IMG/VR virus record: IMGVR_UViG_3300006851_000007
Coordinates: 32,001-96,000 of that record
Length of the DNA stretch: 64,000 nucleotides
Strand: one strand, 5' to 3'
From: a virus
Lineage: Duplodnaviria > Caudoviricetes
The notes beneath the pieces were generated by a model. It did not search any database, had not been told where the DNA came from, and worked only from the letters and a program-made list of their open reading frames with translations. The position numbers and the translations under genes are program-made. This document shows, in pieces, positions 1,278 to 54,499 of this stretch (position 1 is the first letter of the stretch; each line of letters starts with the position of its first letter).

Positions 1278-4200
1278 ATGAGCATCATAGAGCTACACCT
1301 TCATACCAGGTATTCGGTAGGTGATGCCCTGCCATCATCGTGGGACTATGCCAGGGCGGCCGGAAGGGGGAGTGTTTTAGCTATCGTCGACCATGATAAT
1401 ATGGGGGGTATATACGCGCACAAGGCGGCGTGCGAGAAGTATGGTGTTAAGCCTATATATGGGGTTGAGATAACACTCGATGGTGGATACAGCCTGGTTC
1501 TTTTGGCTATGACAAACCGCGGCCTGGAGAACCTGTACGCCCTTCTAGGCACAGACAGGACCACCAAAGATTTACATAGGTACAGCAAGGACGTTATTGC
1601 CCTTAGCGGAAACATGACCTCTGCTCTTGCTGTACACTTTCTTAATGAAGATATGGAGGAGTTTCACGAAACCTTTGGTATATACAAGGATATTTTTGGT
1701 GACAGGTTTTTCCTTGAGATTATTGATCATAATATTGAGGAGCAGGGAAGGTATAACAAGTACCTGAAGAGCCTGGGATGGCAGACAGTAAAGACTAACG
1801 ATGTCCATTATCTTAATAAAGGTGATCACCCAAAACAGGCGGTATTGATATGCGACAGGCTGTCAAGAGTTGCTCTTGATCCGGAGGTGTTGGGTACAGG
1901 TATTGATGAGGCTTATCTGAAGCCACTACCTGATAACCCCAATGCTCAGAAAATCGCTGACATGTGCAATGTTACTCTTAGAGACTCTGGTATATTTTTG
2001 CCAGCATTTGAGATCCCCGAAGGGTTTAAAGATGAGGGGTCGTTTTTAAAGCACCTTGTCTGGAAGGGCTTAAAAGAGAGAGGATGCACCTCAAAAGAAT
2101 ACATAGATAGAGCAGCTCATGAAATTAGAGTTATCGAGGACATGGGCTTTATTGGGTACTTTCTTATTGTGTGGGACTTTATCGAGTTTGCCCACAAAAG
2201 CAATATACCTGTTGGCCCAGGCAGGGGATCTGGAGCAGGAAGCCTTGTGGCCTATGCTTTATATATAACAAATGTTGACCCCATAGAAGGCGGCCTCCTA
2301 TTTGAAAGGTTTTTAAATCCTGACCGCGTCTCAATGCCCGACTTTGATATCGACTTTTGTAGAGACGGCAGGTCCAGGGTTATTGAGTATGTCACAAGCA
2401 AGTACGGAGAGGATTGCGTTAGCGCCATTGGCACATATGGAGAACTAAAGCCGAGAGCTGCATGGAAGAGCGTGGCTAGAGTGCTGGGGATGCCTTTTGA
2501 TAGGCAAAACATGCTGTCAGGAGATCTTCCTGATCCTGTTGTAGATGACGCTAAATTAAAAGATATTTTTGACGATAGTGGCAATATCAGGGAGGAGTTG
2601 AAAGATAAGTACCCTGTGATGTATAGGGAGTCAAAAGATGATGATAAAGTCAGGCTCGTCAACAGGCTATCCACAGGTGTGGAGGGGGCTTATAAGAACA
2701 TAGGTCGCCATGCTGCAGGAATCCTCATCTCTGATGGTCCGGCAGAAAAATATATACCTGTGTGGCACATGGGCAAATACTCACCCATTGAATCTTCGGA
2801 TGATGGGATCAAGACAATGTCTCAGCTGGATATGCGAGATGCCGAAAGGGCGGGTCTTGTAAAGTTTGACTTCCTGGGGCTTATGGAATTAACAGTAATC
2901 GATTACGCAATCATGCTTATTAAGGAGGAGTATGGAATAGATATAAATATAAACGATATACCTAAGGACGATCCAAAGGTCTTCAAAATGCTGGCAGAGG
3001 GGGATACTCTTGGCACTTTCCAGATTGCAAGCCAGGGCATGACTGAATTTGTTAAAATACTTAAACCTGAAAGCCTCAACGACATCATCGCTGTAGTGGC
3101 TCTATACAGACCTGGCCCCATGGATTATGGCGATGGTATGCATCTTGAATACGCCAGAAGGAAAAACGGAGAAGCTCCGGTGACCTTCCTTCATGAGAAC
3201 CTCCGAGAAATTCTTGACGAGACATATGGGGTTATCGTCTATCAGGAACAGATTATGGAAATTGCCCGTAAGGTTGCAGGGTATAGTCTTGGGAAGGCTG
3301 ATATCCTAAGAAGGGCTATGGGTAAGAAGCATAAAGACGAGATGGACAGGGAGAAGGCAAACTTTTTAAGCGGAGCAAGGAGAAATGGCTATAGTGATGA
3401 TATAACCGAGGATCTGTGGGAGCAGATTTCTACCTTCAGTAGATATGGGTTTAACAAGTCTCATGCCGCTTCTTATGGGCTTATCACCTATCAAACAGCA
3501 TGGCTGAAAGCTAATTTCCCTGAGGAGTTGATGGCCGCTCAGATGCAGGTGAGGTCAAATAAGCTGGCTGTGGTAGCTGAATTTATACACAGCTCTGAAG
3601 GTGCGGGGCTGGAGGTTATGTATCCAGATGTTCAGATAGGTAATAAGAACTTTACAACAAAAAACAAGAAGATATATGCAGGCCTTAAATGCATCAGGGG
3701 TATTACGGAGGATGTTTGTGACCGCATAGAGAGGGAGGGGCCGTTCAAAAACCTTACTGAGTTTTTCACTAAAGTTAAGATTGGCAGGGGTGCTCTTAAG
3801 ACGTTGCTATACTCTGGAGCTCTGGATTCTCTTGTTGGGGCGACAACGCTAGAGAAGAAGGCTCAGTTCAGGTCTGATTTGTATAATCAGGCTGACAAAT
3901 TCCTTAACATCGGGAAGAGTGTAAACCCCGATCAGATGACGTTATTTCCGATGGACTTGACTCTACAGTACCGTTCGTGCGAACCAATGAGCATCGGTGA
4001 GATGCTTAAGAGGGAGAGGCATTACATGGGGCTGTATAGAAGCGCCCACCCTATTGAATTTAAGCGGAAGAGGTTGACAGACAGAGGTGGTATAACTATA
4101 AGTGAGGCCCTCTCTGGAGAAAAAGGGTCAGAGATCGAGGTGTGTGGGGTCATCATAGATATCAATGTCATAATTACAAAATCTAATGAATCTATGTGTT

Positions 4201-6435: not shown

Positions 6436-6822
6436 ATGAACAAAGCTATTATTATGGGTAATCTTGGCCAGGATGTTGAGCTGAAATCTGTTGGCGATAC
6501 CCAAGTGGCCAATTTCAGCGTGGCGACGAATGAGAGGTGGGTAGGAAAAGACGGAAAGCCTCAAGAGAGAACAGAGTGGCACTCGATTGTTGTCTGGGGG
6601 AAACAGGCTGAAAACTGTGCAAAGTTTTTAAGCAAGGGAAGCAAGGTGCTGGTTGAAGGCAATATCCAGACTCGCACATGGGATGACGCTGGAAGCAAGA
6701 GGTATAGAACCGAAATCAGGGCTCAGAATGTCCAATTCATCTCTACAGATAGAGGAGGAGGTTCTGGCGGCAATAAGGGTGGCGGGGGGACAGAGTTCTC
6801 TGATGATGATATCCCCTTTTAA
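6436..6822 (+). CDS. ssb: single-stranded DNA-binding protein
   Basis: MNKAIIMGNLGQD, ERTEWH, Gly-rich linker, acidic tail DDDIPF; ATG 6436 follows GAGG. Confidence 0.97.
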   Translation: MNKAIIMGNLGQDVELKSVGDTQVANFSVATNERWVGKDGKPQERTEWHSIVVWGKQAENCAKFLSKGSKVLVEGNIQTRTWDDAGSKRYRTEIRAQNVQFISTDRGGGSGGNKGGGGTEFSDDDIPF

Positions 6823-6839
6823 CAAAAAATAAATTACTA

Positions 6840-6848
6840 TGGTAAAAT
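6840..6848 (+). promoter_or_regulatory. extended -10-like element TGGTAAAAT
   Basis: Lies in an AT-rich intergenic gap; same or similar element recurs at 12463, 17707, 32745, 35584 and 57916 ahead of + strand units. Confidence 0.45.
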
Positions 6849-6876
6849 GCTCCCAGGATAAGAATGGGAGCTTACT

Positions 6877-7557
6877 GTGAAACTTAAAGCATCAGATAGG
6901 CCTCGTGCTGGCTTTATTTATGAGGACTCTACGGCGAGAAGCCTTAAAAGAAGAGGTCACAAAGTAAAGCAGATGCCGAGGAATGCTAAATACGATTTAA
7001 ATGTAAATGGAACTAAGGTGGAAGTTAAAGCCGCCGTAAAAACTAAATACAAAGGGTCGGACGGATACCCTATAGAGGGGTATGTTTTTAGTAATATGAA
7101 GAAGAACCCTAAGAATGATAAATATATTCTTAAGTGTCTGTCTCCAGACAGGAAAAGAACATTAAAAACCTATGAGATACCGTCAAGACTCGTTAAGCAG
7201 AAAACATTAACAATAACAGACAATGGAAAGTATGAGAAATTCAGAAAGTCTGCCTCACTCCGCAGGGCGGCCAGGAGGCTTAAATACGAGACCGTCGGTA
7301 GTCTAACTGGAGCTGCGCTTGCGATGGGTCCAGAGGGAATTGTGGAAGCGGGTAGGTCGTTTTTAGGCTTGCCGTACCGAGAGGAGTCTGTTAACTTCAG
7401 CCTTATCGTCCGAGGAGCAGTAGGGGCGACAATTGGAAGATATATTAGTTCTAATATTTTAAGGAGAAAGCAGCATGAAGAACGTCGTAGGGAAAATCAG
7501 CAGAGAAGAGGGATTAGAGCGGGATACGGTGCTCCGGGTCATCTCGGGGCTTTTTGA
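6877..7557 (+). CDS. putative PD-(D/E)xK nuclease-like domain followed by a Gly-rich hydrophobic tail
   Basis: E...YDLNVNGTKVEVK pattern; after RKSA comes GSLTGAALAMG..GAVGATIG. Confidence 0.5.
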   Translation: MKLKASDRPRAGFIYEDSTARSLKRRGHKVKQMPRNAKYDLNVNGTKVEVKAAVKTKYKGSDGYPIEGYVFSNMKKNPKNDKYILKCLSPDRKRTLKTYEIPSRLVKQKTLTITDNGKYEKFRKSASLRRAARRLKYETVGSLTGAALAMGPEGIVEAGRSFLGLPYREESVNFSLIVRGAVGATIGRYISSNILRRKQHEERRRENQQRRGIRAGYGAPGHLGAF

Positions 7558-31686: not shown

Positions 31687-32718
31687 TTATATGCCCTTGA
31701 ATGCTGATAATTGAGGATCAATTATGGTTTTAACTGGAGCATTTAGTAGTGGGTATGTGCCCAACGGTGTAACCGTAGTGCATAACGCAAGGCTGTCTAC
31801 GACAGCCCCTACGATGTCGGCTATATCCACCCCGCGGCCTTTGATCGACACACCCCCAAAAGTGGACTCTATCTCCACCTTACCTTCGGCCTTCATTTCT
31901 ATCTTACCAGAGCTAGATATAGACAGATTGCTACCGTCCACATCTACATCTCCACCGCTTACACTCAATTCGTCGAACTCGAGAGAGGATGATCCAGTAT
32001 TCACGTCGAGGCTAGCGTCCCTCATATCGATATTTACAGAACCATCCTCTTTTATATGGACAACATTTTTAACCTTCCCGTCTTTAAGCACTTTTATTTC
32101 AATAAAGTTTTCCCCGTCTGTAATATTCACACTGAGAGAGTTGCCCTTCGTACCGCCTTTTGGTGGCGTTCTGTTGACGGCTTCCTCGAAAGCATCATAA
32201 TCAACCCTAGACCTCCAATGGTATGTAGAGCTGCATACACCATCATCGAAACTCAACTCTTGATGGTGAGGTATTGTTACCTGCTCGTACCTTTCAGACA
32301 GATCTGTCTTAACTGATCGCTCGGCATCCATATGGGTTACAGCCCCTCCCCCAGAATCAATAATAACGCCCGAAGGTAAGGCTACCACCTTGCCCTGATT
32401 CCCAAACTCGTCCGAAGACTCTAGGATCTTAGCCCCTTCCAGTTCAGCCAGGTCTGATTTGGCATTTTTAATGCTCATTTCTCCCTGGTCATTCACCTTC
32501 GGGTTGCGCATCTTTCCGAGTACAACCTTTTGGGCTCCATCTGATATTAAAATACACTGATCGCCCTCTTGGTATGAGTCTTCGGCTCCGAGAAACATTA
32601 TATTGACATACTCGAACCTTCTGCCCCTACTGCTGGTTACATCTAACATTCCCGACCCGTAGACTTTATCAACGGTGCAAATATGCATCTGCATGCCTGC
32701 TGAGGTTTGATTGTTCAT
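31687..32718 (-). CDS. probable baseplate spike (gpV/gp5-like)
   Basis: N-terminal OB-like segment (CTVDKV..EGDQCILI), C-terminal short beta-repeat region (VSGGDVDVDGSNLSISSSGKIEMKAEGKVEI). Confidence 0.55.
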   Translation of the reverse strand: MNNQTSAGMQMHICTVDKVYGSGMLDVTSSRGRRFEYVNIMFLGAEDSYQEGDQCILISDGAQKVVLGKMRNPKVNDQGEMSIKNAKSDLAELEGAKILESSDEFGNQGKVVALPSGVIIDSGGGAVTHMDAERSVKTDLSERYEQVTIPHHQELSFDDGVCSSTYHWRSRVDYDAFEEAVNRTPPKGGTKGNSLSVNITDGENFIEIKVLKDGKVKNVVHIKEDGSVNIDMRDASLDVNTGSSSLEFDELSVSGGDVDVDGSNLSISSSGKIEMKAEGKVEIESTFGGVSIKGRGVDIADIVGAVVDSLALCTTVTPLGTYPLLNAPVKTIIDPQLSAFKGI

Positions 32719-49443: not shown

Positions 49444-50616
49444 TTAGCCAGCCCTCTCGTATAATTCTTCCGACGGGTGATGGTATGCATCGGAAGCATT
49501 GTACGACTTGAGGTACTGGTCAAGACTTAGCATGACCATGGGCATGTTAAGCTCCCTTATAAAGTTCGGCACCGCCGAATTGCCCCAACAGGGGTTGCCC
49601 CCAATCCCTATATGGGGGTGTACGGCTGGAACTGTTTCGCCGTCCTCTCCCATGCTCGTGAATGATGTCTCAATATCCATACCAACAGAGTTGGTTCCCA
49701 CAATAACGTTGAATGTGCACGGCTTTATCAGCCACCCCCCCTCATCATCCTCTATAACCCTCTCTGGAATATCAAATCTCAGACGAAGGACTGAGGAGTA
49801 CTGATCTCTTCGTCGATAAAGAGCCCCTGTCAGTGTTATATCTTCCCACCTCAGATCATCTTTTGTTACCTTATAGTCATCTAAGATTAATTGTCGGGAG
49901 AGTAGAGTCTCCCTGTTTCTATATAATGACCCTAATCTGCCCCTTATCACATCTGCATAGTATGAAGCACCGCTTTGTGCGACAGGAACACTTAATCTCA
50001 TGTTCAAGTCATACGTTACGTGTGAAAGAGTTATGGATGGTATTCTGTTGAACCCCAGGTTAGACAGGGTGTCTACAATCTCTTGTAACTCCTCCTCCAT
50101 ATTCAAAGCAGTGGTGAGCAGCGATGATGAGGTTCTTAAATCCTCAATCCTATTGTCGATTGACCGCATTTCATCTCTTACCGACCTGCCGAACAGCTCA
50201 TTCGCATCTCCTGCGAATGCCATTATTTGATTAATAATGAATTGGTCTGGGTCCTCGACAAGGTTTGGAAACATTTCCTCCAAACGGTCTTCAACCCATG
50301 TCTTGATGGTTGGCCTGTAATTATTGACGAGCTCCTCATCGTCAATTTTGGCCAGAATGAAGAATGACCGATTGGCGGTCGTGCATGCCGGTATACCATC
50401 AATGATTAACACCGGCCCACCCTCAAGATCCCTCTTCATTGCTTTGGTGAAATGCCTGTCACCGTTTAGGAAAAGCGGGACACATACCATAACATCGGGA
50501 GTGATCCCCAATGATGTTACACCATCGCTGATAAACCTCGAGCTCCACCTCTCAAACCTCCTACGTACAGGGGATGTGTACGCTTGCAATTCTTCCATAA
50601 TAGCTGTTTCAAGCAT
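49444..50616 (-). CDS. E2/UBC-like protein B with long helical N-terminal region
   Basis: C-terminal VHPHIGIGGNPCWGN..SYNASDAYH, resembling the E2 HPN..C site; Ubl operon context. Confidence 0.6.
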   Translation of the reverse strand: MLETAIMEELQAYTSPVRRRFERWSSRFISDGVTSLGITPDVMVCVPLFLNGDRHFTKAMKRDLEGGPVLIIDGIPACTTANRSFFILAKIDDEELVNNYRPTIKTWVEDRLEEMFPNLVEDPDQFIINQIMAFAGDANELFGRSVRDEMRSIDNRIEDLRTSSSLLTTALNMEEELQEIVDTLSNLGFNRIPSITLSHVTYDLNMRLSVPVAQSGASYYADVIRGRLGSLYRNRETLLSRQLILDDYKVTKDDLRWEDITLTGALYRRRDQYSSVLRLRFDIPERVIEDDEGGWLIKPCTFNVIVGTNSVGMDIETSFTSMGEDGETVPAVHPHIGIGGNPCWGNSAVPNFIRELNMPMVMLSLDQYLKSYNASDAYHHPSEELYERAG

Positions 50617-51266
50617 TAGCCCTCCATACGAATATGGTCATTCGTTTTCGTGTCCATGATTGTGCAAAAGTCGTTCTTCTGCCCGTTCACATAATTAACA
50701 ACCCTGGTCGTAATCATGCTGCCGATGGTCATGGCGGTGGACATGGTTGTCCTGGCTGTACACGGAAGGTTTGCGGTCTCCCCTTCCAGTGACTCTTTGT
50801 ACGCAGATACCGCCCCTCGATCGGTCATGTCCACACAGTAGAGCATCATGGTTGTCAATCCCATTCGACCATCGATAAGAAGATCTACATTTGCATCATA
50901 CTCAATAGCATTGAAGATCTCTCTTCTGGCCTCTAGGGAGTCAACCCCCACGATGACAACCCTTCTGGCCTCCTTACCCCTCTCAAACTTCTCTCTAGCG
51001 ACCTCGATCTGCCCTTCTCCAAAATACGACAGAACATCATTGATGGAATCAACCTTGTGTTTGTTCTTGTGCCTATCCCCAAAGCTCTGATTTGACAGGT
51101 TGTGTTCCTCAACCACATCGTGATCATAAGCTTTGATATTCTTGAATCCTGTCTTAGATAGAGCAAGTATTGTCCAAGAGCCAATACCTCCAGCCCCAAT
51201 GACCGTGATGGGTAATCTTTTTGCTTGATCCGTGGGGATGTAGTCCTGTTGTCTAAGATATCTCAT
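50616..51266 (-). CDS. E1-like ThiF/MoeB-family adenylyltransferase
   Basis: RYLRQ, VIGAGGIG, DHDVVEEHNLSNQ, KVD, VGVDS..AR, IDGRMG, putative catalytic Cys in LPCTAR. Confidence 0.92.
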   Translation of the reverse strand: MRYLRQQDYIPTDQAKRLPITVIGAGGIGSWTILALSKTGFKNIKAYDHDVVEEHNLSNQSFGDRHKNKHKVDSINDVLSYFGEGQIEVAREKFERGKEARRVVIVGVDSLEARREIFNAIEYDANVDLLIDGRMGLTTMMLYCVDMTDRGAVSAYKESLEGETANLPCTARTTMSTAMTIGSMITTRVVNYVNGQKNDFCTIMDTKTNDHIRMEG

Positions 51267-51279
51267 TAGTTACTCCTTA

Positions 51280-52389
51280 TTATTCATAGATCCATGAATT
51301 AGACATGTAGAAATCATCAGAAAGATAGGCGTCCCAATAATAATGCGGAGGCTCCTCGTTGGCCGTCTCGATGTCTGCCAGGTCTACATCCACAAGAGTG
51401 CACGCATCCATAACCAGCTCCCACCTCCGCCTGTTTCGGACTGTTATGTCAAACTTTGACAGGCCTACACCCTCCAAGCACACATCTTCCTGGTAACCCC
51501 CTTCGGCCCAGGATGCCATATCTTTAATAAACTCAATCCTTTTGCTGAGGTTTCCATTTGAAGTCCCCCCCTCATCCTCAATGTCTTTCACTATTGAGGC
51601 GACTATATCCTCCTGGATCGATATACTTTCATCAAACTCCGTCTCAATTTCAGCAGACATGATCCAGTCAAAATCCTGGAGAGTGACTTCTTTTTTTTTA
51701 GAAGACGATCTCTTGTTCCTCCTGTTCCTCCTGGAGTGCAACCTCCCGTGCTTTCCTGCGGTCACTTTTCTCACCGCAGGCTTCTTCACGACCACCTTCT
51801 TTTTGTACTCGGCCTCACAGTGGCCTAGGGTATCAAACGCAATATCCAGCATCCTGATGACCTCTTTCTTCACCTCATCTCTCGGCAAGTCGTTAAACTT
51901 TTTGATGAGATCAATCACAGAGGTGATGCTTGTCAGCCCGTCAGGAACAATCTCAATTTCTATATTGTCCTGCTTGAGCTGATAGGGGGTGGAAAATGAG
52001 TCCACCCTCGTCCTGACTTCACCCTTTTTGTTGAACACGGACGAGACAAGGTAAGGATTCCCCCGGATGGTACGGATAGCCTCCTCGTCGGTAGCGGACC
52101 AGAACACATCCATATCAACATGTGAGTGCCACCACAGCCTCAGCTCTCCCAGCTCCTCCTCCCTGTCTGATAGCTCATCCATCAAATGAGCAGTCGCAAG
52201 GGCATCAATTTCTGTGGTTACAGAGGTCACCTCCTGTTCAAGGAGGAAAGCGTCAGTTACCACGAAATGGTCGTCAACAATCTTGACCGTTCCGTAGCCG
52301 CTTATTTCCTTGGGGCATAGTTGTACCCATTGTTGAATCTTCGAGTACGCTCTATCTGTATATCTGACAGGCTTCATTATTACTCCCAC
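51280..52389 (-). CDS. JAB/MPN+ (JAMM) metallo-isopeptidase with C-terminal extension
   Basis: EISGYG, then HSH-VDMDVFW-S-AT-D, an exact H-x-H-x7-S-x2-D match. Confidence 0.92.
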   Translation of the reverse strand: MGVIMKPVRYTDRAYSKIQQWVQLCPKEISGYGTVKIVDDHFVVTDAFLLEQEVTSVTTEIDALATAHLMDELSDREEELGELRLWWHSHVDMDVFWSATDEEAIRTIRGNPYLVSSVFNKKGEVRTRVDSFSTPYQLKQDNIEIEIVPDGLTSITSVIDLIKKFNDLPRDEVKKEVIRMLDIAFDTLGHCEAEYKKKVVVKKPAVRKVTAGKHGRLHSRRNRRNKRSSSKKKEVTLQDFDWIMSAEIETEFDESISIQEDIVASIVKDIEDEGGTSNGNLSKRIEFIKDMASWAEGGYQEDVCLEGVGLSKFDITVRNRRRWELVMDACTLVDVDLADIETANEEPPHYYWDAYLSDDFYMSNSWIYE

Positions 52390-53285
52390 TCAACCTGGTT
52401 CATTGACTCTGCTACTTCCAAATTTGTGTGGTAACTATCGTCCTCATTATATGAAGATGTTACCTGACTCAGGATAAACCCAATCCCCATAATATCGAAC
52501 CTGGTGACACATTCATTAAAGGCCCCACGCATATTCCCCAGGCACATTTCGGAATACCCAACCTCTGGGTGGTAGGTCGATGCGTGAGGATGAAATGCAC
52601 ACGATACTGCTGGACTCATCCCCTCTAACACCGGCGAGGCTGTCAGGTACCACACACCATCGGCGTTCAGCCCGACAGCATACTTAATGCTGTACTCATC
52701 ACCCTCGTACTCTGGTGGGCGGTATCGAACCACAAACTCCATTTCCGAACCGCGCATATTAAAATCCAGAATCGCACCACTATCGATAAGTTGTGCGACA
52801 CCTCTAAACATCCCTATAAAATCATCAGGAGCGACAAACTCACTCAAGTTTCTCACTCTTCTCTCTGCTTCGACCTTATAATCCTCAGTACGAAGGATAA
52901 GCCTCCTGAGGTCCCCTGCATTGAGGGCGATTAGAGTCTCATAGATACTATCCACACTCGATGACCCCTCACCGCCCGTGGGTGAGTCCTCTGTGCTGTC
53001 CATTAGGGTGTCTAGAATATCTTTGATTTTTGCGTAGAATGCTGGATGGGCATTATCCTCGTGATCCACATTAGCCAGCATTATCGTTTTCTCTTCACGT
53101 ATATAGAGAACCCCCTCGTCATCAGTGAACCGGTCATCGACGTTGGTAGGTCCCTCTACAGCCACCAACACCTCCCACTGATCCGTAGAAGGGTCGCTCG
53201 GAAAGTAGTTGGTTCTTAAAATCCTGCCACCTACAGGCTCCATGCGGGAGAGTAGGGCATCCTCGAGTCCTGGTACAATAAACAT
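52380..53285 (-). CDS. E2/UBC-like protein A
   Basis: FHPHAS..EMCLGN..SYNEDDSYH; C-terminus paralogous to 49444-50616. Confidence 0.6.
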   Translation of the reverse strand: MFIVPGLEDALLSRMEPVGGRILRTNYFPSDPSTDQWEVLVAVEGPTNVDDRFTDDEGVLYIREEKTIMLANVDHEDNAHPAFYAKIKDILDTLMDSTEDSPTGGEGSSSVDSIYETLIALNAGDLRRLILRTEDYKVEAERRVRNLSEFVAPDDFIGMFRGVAQLIDSGAILDFNMRGSEMEFVVRYRPPEYEGDEYSIKYAVGLNADGVWYLTASPVLEGMSPAVSCAFHPHASTYHPEVGYSEMCLGNMRGAFNECVTRFDIMGIGFILSQVTSSYNEDDSYHTNLEVAESMNQVEWE

Positions 53286-53296
53286 TCTAATCCTTT

Positions 53297-53321
53297 AAAA
53301 AAAACGGGCGCCGAAGCGCCC
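53297..53321 (-). terminator. intrinsic terminator between the Ubl gene and the enzyme genes
   Basis: Minus strand GGGCGC-TTCG-GCGCCC followed by G and eight T. Confidence 0.85.
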
Positions 53322-53349: not shown

Positions 53350-53760
53350 TTACTGGCCACCCTCGACGTTCGGAGCCAGAATGATGTTATCCCCGTTTTG
53401 TAGAACCTCACCTAGGGAGGCCTCCCTACCGTTTAGAAAAACCCGAGACCCGTCCGGCTCGTGTCGGCCGAGGAGGTCCCCGAGGATCTCACCTCTTTGG
53501 AATACTACTTTCTCTTGCCCCCTCCCCAGGCGGGACAGGGTGGCCGTAAGCTCTTCTGATCCACCCTTCACGTTTGACACGATCGTGATCGTGTCTCCGT
53601 GTGCCACCTGAGCATCAAGGCTTACTTGCGCCCTCTCCCTGGTGACGATGCACCCTTCAGCTGAGAATCCGGACGCTCGGACTGCGTCCAGGACCGTGCT
53701 TCCCTCGGGGAGATTAACTGTGGTCGAGCCCTGTCCAATCTTTCTTACATCAAGCTTCAT
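53350..53760 (-). CDS. tandem ubiquitin-like (beta-grasp, ThiS/MoaD-like) precursor
   Basis: Two ~67-aa domains ending HGDTITIVSNVKGG and NGDNIILAPNVEGG-Q; GGAGG 6 nt before ATG 53760. Confidence 0.88.
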   Translation of the reverse strand: MKLDVRKIGQGSTTVNLPEGSTVLDAVRASGFSAEGCIVTRERAQVSLDAQVAHGDTITIVSNVKGGSEELTATLSRLGRGQEKVVFQRGEILGDLLGRHEPDGSRVFLNGREASLGEVLQNGDNIILAPNVEGGQ

Positions 53761-53815
53761 ATACATCCTCCATATGGATAAAATACGAGCAACACCCTAT
53801 GTGCCGCTCGTGAAT

Positions 53816-53845
53816 ATTATACCGTTATTTTTGATTAAATTTAGC
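53816..53845 (-). promoter_or_regulatory. GCTAAAT-class promoter of the Ubl operon
   Basis: GCTAAATTTAATCAAAAATAACGGTATAAT. Confidence 0.75.
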
Positions 53846-54499
53846 CTTCCCGGTGCCGTGCACCCTAAAGGCTACTACCGAGCTGCGATTCTTTCTAAAG
53901 CACAGCATGCATTCAGAGCATGAGATACCATGCGTCTGGTTAGGACAAACAACAAGCCTGGCATTTTTGCCATTAATATTAATCACGCCAGATTCAAAGT
54001 CTTCGTCGACCACGGTCGTGGCAGGCCACCCTGAGTTGACAGCATTTATGACCTCTTCTTTTGAATCGCACGAAGCATTCACGCAGAGGGATTTTTCGGC
54101 ATTCATCTTTTTAGAATCCAGCCTCTCCCAGGCGTGGGTGTATGTCCACCCTTTAAGGTCTGGTCTTTCTGAGTGTGCCTTTAGTACTGAGTCTATATAG
54201 TTAGTATCAATCATATCTCCAGGCTTCATAAAGTCGCCAGAAACATGATGTCTGAGCTTCTTACCTTCAGGCAAATTAGTAACATAGTCGTAAATAATGT
54301 CAGCATCACTCCTGCTATATTCTGACACTTTTGCGTGCATATTCACAAACGAGTATAAGGCGTAACAGCTCCTATTTTGCAGGTGTTCACAGGATTGTGG
54401 ACACGTGGGTCCAACCTCTCTGTATGTCGCTCTCACACCCCTACCGAGCTTGCGGTTGCCCGAATCCCTCTCAAGACATTTAATCATCTCTTCCTCCAA
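53825..54499 (-). CDS. Cys-rich hypothetical protein (possible Fe-S/metal-binding enzyme)
   Basis: CPQSC..CYA, RHHVSGDF, WTYTH, CPNQ..CSECMLC. Confidence 0.6.
   Translation of the reverse strand: MEEEMIKCLERDSGNRKLGRGVRATYREVGPTCPQSCEHLQNRSCYALYSFVNMHAKVSEYSRSDADIIYDYVTNLPEGKKLRHHVSGDFMKPGDMIDTNYIDSVLKAHSERPDLKGWTYTHAWERLDSKKMNAEKSLCVNASCDSKEEVINAVNSGWPATTVVDEDFESGVININGKNARLVVCPNQTHGISCSECMLCFRKNRSSVVAFRVHGTGKAKFNQK

Follow-up and report, generated by a model that had tools for sequence, protein, structure and literature searches.

The DNA analyzed here (the window, 64,000 nucleotides) covers positions 32,001–96,000 of the IMG/VR record IMGVR_UViG_3300006851_000007, which has 124,780 bp and is estimated to be 75% complete; a large terminase and a ribonucleotide reductase are encoded in this phage genome. 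The window contains five co-oriented genes, the first of which codes for a protein with two ubiquitin-like (Ubl) units (di-Ubl) and is followed by the genes for an E2-like protein, a JAB metallopeptidase, an E1, and a second E2-like protein. The features are:

53350..53760 (−), di-Ubl gene, candidate precursor of 136 aa plus stop
53560..53760 (−), Ubl unit 1 (aa 1–67), ThiS-like beta-grasp with the tail S-N-V-K-G-G, then S68
53356..53559 (−), linker S68–E70 and Ubl unit 2 (aa 68–135), beta-grasp with the tail P-N-V-E-G-G
53353..53355 (−), cap codon Q136 after the terminal GG, read from the sequence; TAA at 53350–53352
53297..53321 (−), terminator-like hairpin GGGCGC-TTCG-GCGCCC and T8 run, separating the Ubl gene from the enzyme genes
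52380..53285 (−), E2-like protein 1, 301 aa, HP..C.GN motif (alignment A4)
51280..52389 (−), JAB/MPN+ metallopeptidase, 369 aa, complete JAMM motif
50616..51266 (−), minimal ThiF-type E1, 216 aa, Pfam ThiF 4e-17, crossover-loop C169 (alignment A3)
49444..50616 (−), E2-like protein 2, 390 aa, motif HPHIGIGGNPCWGN

The mechanically called ORF of the di-Ubl (53350–53766, −) starts two codons before the likely ATG. The likely start is the third codon, the ATG at 53760, with GGAGGA located 5 nt upstream, and all homologues begin at the methionine matching this ATG. With this start the protein has 136 residues, and the span 53350–53760 given in an earlier note on this DNA proved exact to the base. 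The tails read in that note, NVKGG followed by S in unit 1 and NVEGG followed by Q and the stop codon in unit 2, were confirmed, and its description of the units as divergent apart from GDxI..NVxGG was fair, as they are 25% identical. The note had also called the gene polyubiquitin-style. This held for the head-to-tail arrangement of distinct Ubls, the GG tails, and the terminal blocking residue, but not for the junction, where the internal GG is followed by the three-residue linker SEE (S68–E70) and where polyubiquitin has zero residues. A second terminator-like hairpin was observed at 53785–53811 (−), and the Ubl gene is thus flanked by hairpins on both sides. Immediately upstream of it lies a DUF7227/GP88-like gene (53825–54499, −), a linkage also seen in the related loci L002, L003, and L004.

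Pfam ThiS matched unit 1 only (residues 12–69; 33 bits against a cut-off of 22.5; 9e-8), and unit 2 was detected only by a family HMM built in this analysis. AlphaFold2, run on an alignment of 18 sequences, predicted two beta-beta-alpha-beta-beta units with a mean pLDDT of 91.4, the strands and helix of unit 1 spanning aa 2–62 (pLDDT 94–98) and those of unit 2 spanning aa 71–129 (pLDDT 88–96). The confidence dropped at residues 61–70, which comprise the internal GG and the linker, and at the C-terminus. As the pTM is 0.51 and the linker is of low confidence, the model does not appear to fix how the two Ubl domains are oriented to each other, which fits two domains that fold independently on a flexible string and leave both GG tails exposed. 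The fold, the above-threshold sequence match of unit 1, and the C-terminal Gly-Gly together place the protein among the beta-grasp Ubls of the ThiS/MoaD/SAMP type. By profile, the nearest solved single domains were SAMP2 (5LDA, 5e-10) and PF1061/1rws, which scored about the same, and MoaD and ThiS were also among them. A reading of the GGQ terminus as Pup (a disordered modifier of about 64 aa with a conserved GGQ/GGE, partnered by Dop/PafA) was rejected, since the units are folded, the Q is not conserved, and the partners are an E1 and a JAB.

The best matches found by Foldseek in the PDB were linear di-ubiquitin, ISG15, and FAT10, with E-values of about 1e-7 to 1e-8. The family profile also aligned in register with polyubiquitin ('KGG-aeitVkv' over 'RGG-MQIFVK', the GG ending one unit), a match in which single stretches are weak and the low overall E-value is the sum over the repeats. 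ISG15 and FAT10, like the window protein, have two beta-grasp domains per chain, and ISG15 is made with a C-terminal extension that is later removed. The possibility exists that the JAB removes the Q cap only and that the di-Ubl is conjugated whole via G135, in which case the internal GG would be a hinge or a relic of the duplication. ISG15 and FAT10 match the fold no less well than linear di-ubiquitin does, and the two units of the window protein are divergent, as in ISG15; the inter-domain packing, however, was not confident at the above pTM. We regard conjugation of the whole chain as rather unlikely, though it deserves more weight than the other alternatives considered below, and the conservation of the internal GG bears on it directly.

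An exhaustive phmmer search gave 48 relatives of the di-Ubl, to which 14 further di-Ubls were added from a profile search; the long repetitive phmmer matches P0011, P0013, P0014, P0023, P0024, P0036, and P0038 were discounted, being repeat proteins without relation to the family. Relatives surfaced only by this exhaustive search and by a scan with the E1 alignment. A word-indexed protein search for close homologues, as well as megablast and tblastn against INPHARED, returned the window's own protein or nothing, and no more came of pattern scans in which the Ubl, the E1, or the 301-aa protein was run against IMG/VR. Among 18 di-Ubl homologues of 25–42% identity, the sole invariant columns were G66, G67, G134, and G135, and the alignment lacked a conserved stretch as long as 7–10 columns. 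When 34 GG-type multi-unit relatives (33 two-unit proteins and one four-unit protein) were counted, GG was found at 36/36 internal junctions and 34/34 termini with the tail consensus P-K-[VI]-[KE]-G-G, these junctions being those of related sequences and hence not phylogenetically independent events. Since the glycines are the only invariant columns in the 18 homologues and are present at all 36 junctions, the pattern is not a matter of chance. The residue after the internal GG (P1') was small (A in 22, S in 6, N in 3, G in 2, Q in 2, and V in 1 of the 36 junctions). The terminal cap that the earlier note had pointed out is present as Q136, but the Q itself is not conserved, and relatives carry 0–4 variable residues of no fixed sequence, N, LVQ, DQ, RL, and M among them.

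The earlier note had named conservation of the internal GG among homologues as a check on the precursor reading, and the GG was invariant. Judged from these alignments, the internal GG is constrained as strongly as the terminal one. ISG15 and FAT10 no longer have a GG in their N-terminal domains and are conjugated whole, whereas in this family both the internal GG and its P6–P3 context are as invariant as those of the terminus over the 36 junctions, which argues against an ISG15-like use of the chain. Two points nevertheless weigh against a precursor: the GG could be kept as a hinge, and its retention would be trivial in recently duplicated arrays such as P0010, where the identity between units is 93%.

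The history of the units was examined in a single-unit tree (quick IQ-TREE, 68 columns, modest support). The unit-2 sequences of P0001 (the 136-aa form of the window protein), P0002, P0003, and P0005 formed one clade (SH-aLRT 90), and the unit-1 sequences of the same proteins made up two groups (91 and 82) apart from this clade. In this clade, the identity was 37–60% between unit-1 sequences, 29–40% between unit-2 sequences, and 21–35% across positions. The units of the large P0008 clade also grouped by position, unit 1 with unit 1 and unit 2 with unit 2. Since the units cluster by position, the duplication is old in both clades, and the GG has therefore survived a long divergence in both units. 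Moreover, unit 1 is better conserved than unit 2, which is unexpected if the C-terminal tail alone were used, as in ISG15. Elsewhere in the tree, units of one and the same protein clustered together in at least ten lineages. As with polyubiquitin, this suggests concerted evolution or a recent duplication, and identities of 65–93% between units were found in P0010, P0020, P0022, and P0029. The window protein, with 25% identity, does not have the (near-)identical units of polyubiquitin. These groupings suggest that tandem arrays arose repeatedly.

The number of units also varied among the cassette relatives, whose contexts were compared outside the large P0008/P0059 di-Ubl clade: Ubls of one, two, three, or four units were found. 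The loci L004 and L006 (117-kb contig) share synteny with the window, each encoding a di-Ubl; L010 has a single Ubl (GG+RS), followed by an E2-like protein and a JAB; L009 has a three-unit Ubl; and in L005 (300-kb contig) a four-unit Ubl adjoins the E1. The latter pair lies at L005:8140-9882, units 2–4 are near-identical, and TerB, TerD, and PTH2 genes are found nearby; the contig is likely a jumbo phage or a large mobile element. The scan of IMG/VR with the E1 alignment gave 217 relatives, and in the 80 E1 loci fetched most Ubls were single with 0–2 cap residues, di-Ubls being present in L026, L028, and L030. Two separate Ubl genes together with two JAB genes were found in each of L052 (Ubls at 3829-4053 and 6680-6907) and L087 (61-267 and 7386-7601). 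L087 apparently holds two complete cassettes, one with a KGN-type and the other with a GG-type Ubl. Since Ubls occur singly and as separate genes in the same type of cassette, the functional unit would be one beta-grasp with a GG tail, a point that again speaks against conjugation of the whole chain, and fusing units into one ORF appears to be a recurrent option.

A sister family of tandem Ubls has 2–4 units ending in KGN instead of KGG, and several of its members stop exactly at KGN. It includes L009:1618-2232, P0006, P0009, P0016, P0017, P0025, P0031, P0035 (EGN), P0037, P0040, P0044, and P0047, and P0033 has KGA; one KGN-type tandem Ubl adjoins a ThiF-type E1. Their C-terminal Asn recalls MccA/MccB, where such a residue is adenylated by an E1-like enzyme, and the KGN-type proteins may thus use a different chemistry.

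Related cassettes of E2-like protein, JAB, and E1 were also observed in two cultured phages, in both of which the first gene is a Ubl fusion. In gp53 of Flavobacterium phage FpV4 (L001:2658-3527), an N-terminal Ubl-like domain ending in KSGG is followed by an acidic tail of 150–200 residues, and in gp048 of the crAss-like Bacteroides phage DAC15 (L092:2498-3238) a Ubl-like domain ending in KSGA is followed by an acidic tail of the same length range. The Ubl HMM did not detect a Ubl in FpV4, DAC15, or PhiXhv-12, and the FpV4 and DAC15 domains were read by eye. These fusions are of a different kind and would also need cutting. They lend some substance to the idea that unit 1 of the window protein is the sole modifier and that unit 2 is a removable C-terminal pro-domain, carrier, or chaperone, and the idea is also in line with the higher conservation of unit 1 and with its Pfam ThiS match, which unit 2 lacks. 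However, unit 2 keeps an invariant GG, a cap, and the same tail consensus, all of which would be pointless in a pro-domain that is discarded, and we consider such a role highly improbable.

The neighboring JAB, which the earlier note had proposed to cut behind both GG motifs and to gate activation, is indeed present two genes downstream of the Ubl gene, and its JAMM motif is complete and conserved: E28, H88-x-H90, S98, and D101 are invariant in the alignment with syntenic homologues. Its profile matched Rpn11 at 2e-5, and the match to Pfam Prok-JAB was weak. The E1 is a single ThiF adenylation domain, not the multidomain IAD-AAD-CYS arrangement of the Bil type; it retains the glycines that bind the nucleotide, the catalytic residues Arg and Asp, and the invariant crossover-loop C169, and its relatives in the PDB are ThiF-type proteins, UBA5, MccB, MoeB, and BubCD. 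In the E2-like family, H239, C248, and G250 are invariant, and P240, N280, and Y285 are near-invariant. Similarity between the two E2-like proteins is confined to a C-terminal module (HPH-x7-C-x-GN ... YN...Y), which follows long N-terminal regions that are unrelated. The spacing from His to Cys is 10 residues in the 390-aa protein and 9 in the 301-aa protein; UBC enzymes have 10 residues between the HPN histidine and the catalytic cysteine. Searches of Pfam, PHROGs, and PADLOC gave no match for this family. The AlphaFold2 model of the 301-aa protein (11 sequences) had a pLDDT of 47 and was unusable, so it was left out of the fold search and the E2 status is motif-based: by the motif, both proteins are putative E2-like enzymes.

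A minimal E1 resembling ThiF and MoeB would also suit sulfur carriers. In such a pathway the E1 would thiocarboxylate the ThiS/MoaD-like units to serve the thiolation of a cofactor or nucleoside, and the JAB would only expose the GG, as in CysO/Mec+ and QbsE/QbsD. The placement of unit 1 in Pfam ThiS, the nearest solved domains (SAMP2, MoaD, and ThiS), and the label 'thiamine biosynthesis protein' carried by the E1 genes of these cassettes in phage records are in line with this alternative. On the other hand, two HP..C.G(N) proteins flank the JAB and the E1 in all syntenic cassettes, and Pfam showed no domain of a rhodanese, cysteine desulfurase, or thiolation enzyme in the cassette. A sulfur-carrier role is thus very unlikely in our estimate, and it would have no bearing on whether the internal GG is cut.

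Taken together, the protein is probably, though far from certainly, a hetero-di-Ubl precursor that heads a phage-borne ubiquitin-like conjugation cassette and is cut by the JAB into two tags. By sequence and model, one 136-residue chain is translated, in which two independently folded ThiS/SAMP-like units carry flexible tails of the form P/S-N-V-[KE]-G-G. The hairpin located between the Ubl gene and the enzyme genes could set a high Ubl:enzyme ratio and may allow the tag to be made in excess over the enzymes. The JAB/MPN+ protein of the cassette would then cut after G67 and G135, removing the Q cap and separating the units, and the minimal, homodimer-type E1 would adenylate each freed C-terminal glycine and form a thioester on C169. 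From the E1, the units would pass to the cysteine of one or both E2-like proteins and further to phage or host targets. Neither unit would be activatable until the JAB acts, and the peptidase would therefore gate the pathway.

We infer cleavage at the internal GG from the invariance of this motif and from published cases in which a JAB cuts Ubl caps or linear fusions. BilC, a JAB, removes the single residue after Gly97 of BilA (between G97 and A98), a residue that sterically blocks ATP binding and adenylation by the E1, and it also cleaves a linear BilA-GFP fusion (PMC10557695). Gating by a cap, as proposed here, would thus have a direct precedent in BilC/BilA. For the BubAB fusion, cleavage after G229 by the JAB domain of BubCD has been published (PMC11601596). 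What counts against the precursor model is that the known prokaryotic Ubls with several beta-grasps (Bil and Bub), as well as ISG15 and FAT10, are conjugated whole: Type I Bil Ubls have two beta-grasps, those of Bub and Type II Bil have up to three, and all are treated as single modifiers, which favors an ISG15-like chain.

The organization of the gene resembles that of polyubiquitin (UBB/UBC, yeast UBI4) in that head-to-tail Ubls are encoded in one ORF, each with a GG and with one to a few blocking residues after the last, that the number of units varies among relatives, and that several relatives have near-identical units. It differs in that the units are ThiS/SAMP-like and, being so dissimilar from each other, would be two different modifiers, in that 2–5 linker residues follow the internal GG, in that the gene is phage-encoded, and in that the presumed processing enzyme is a JAMM metalloprotease and not a cysteine DUB. 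With SAMP2/JAMM1 (5LDA) the cassette shares a ThiS-like GG modifier, a JAMM protease partner, and a minimal E1, but the archaeal SAMPs are encoded as single units and SAMPylation proceeds without an E2.

Among bacterial systems, tandem repeats of one to three Ubl domains were called 'reminiscent of poly-ubiquitin' already in 2006 (Iyer et al., PMC1779556), and a 2024 review gives bacterial tandem Ubl proteins, which are members of 6E/Bub operons, the name 'PolyUbl'. The cassette has the gene order Ubl-E2-JAB-E1 of Bil (BilABCD), and it shares with Bil a conserved Gly on the Ubl followed by a short non-conserved cap, which in Bil is removed by a JAB that also cleaves linear fusions (PMC10557695). 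Unlike Bil, in which BilD is a multidomain IAD-AAD-CYS E1, the two-domain Ubls are regarded as one unit, and the system serves host defense, the cassette has a 216-aa E1 with a single adenylation domain and resides in a phage genome together with a terminase and a ribonucleotide reductase. No sequence match was obtained between the cassette proteins and Bil components.

Cutting of a Ubl fusion by a JAB after a conserved Gly is also a feature of Bub (Ye et al. 2024, PMC11601596). In that system the JAB, or else the E2, is fused to the E1, the E1 and the E2 lack a catalytic cysteine (oxyester chemistry), a DUF6527 protease is present, and the multi-domain Ubl acts as one unit, of which domains 1–2 form filaments (PMC11601596). 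In the window, by contrast, the JAB and the E1 are separate genes, C169 of the E1 and C248 of the E2-like protein are invariant, DUF6527 was not found in the cassette with Pfam, and GG is present on every unit, the multi-domain Ubls of Bub and Bil being compared here by their published descriptions. The features that define Bub are absent from the cassette, and so is the multidomain E1 that defines Bil.

Full-text literature searches turned up no account of phage-encoded tandem Ubls in which each junction has a conserved GG, and none of a heterotypic Ubl precursor. We tentatively propose, at somewhat less than even odds, that phages have repeatedly evolved true polyubiquitin-type precursors and that the present one is heterotypic, giving two modifiers per transcript that are released by a JAMM protease and are possibly served by two E2-like paralogs. 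If this is true, eukaryotes would no longer be the only source of a multi-modifier precursor, and the first case outside them would be virus-borne rather than part of a host defense system. The family is small and soluble, and the phages with related cassettes include cultured ones, namely Flavobacterium phage FpV4 and crAss-like Bacteroides phages.

Prokaryotic Ubl conjugation has so far been characterized as host antiphage defense (CBASS Cap2, Bil, and Bub), whereas here the whole toolkit is found in phages, with a Ubl gene organized like the eukaryotic ubiquitin hallmark of tandem GG-terminated units and a blocking cap. If the junction is cut, the logic of the precursor, i.e. peptidase-gated and stoichiometric release of modifiers, would not be a eukaryotic invention, two distinct tags would be deliverable from one gene, and phages would use protein tagging for their own ends, such as takeover, virion maturation, or counter-defense.
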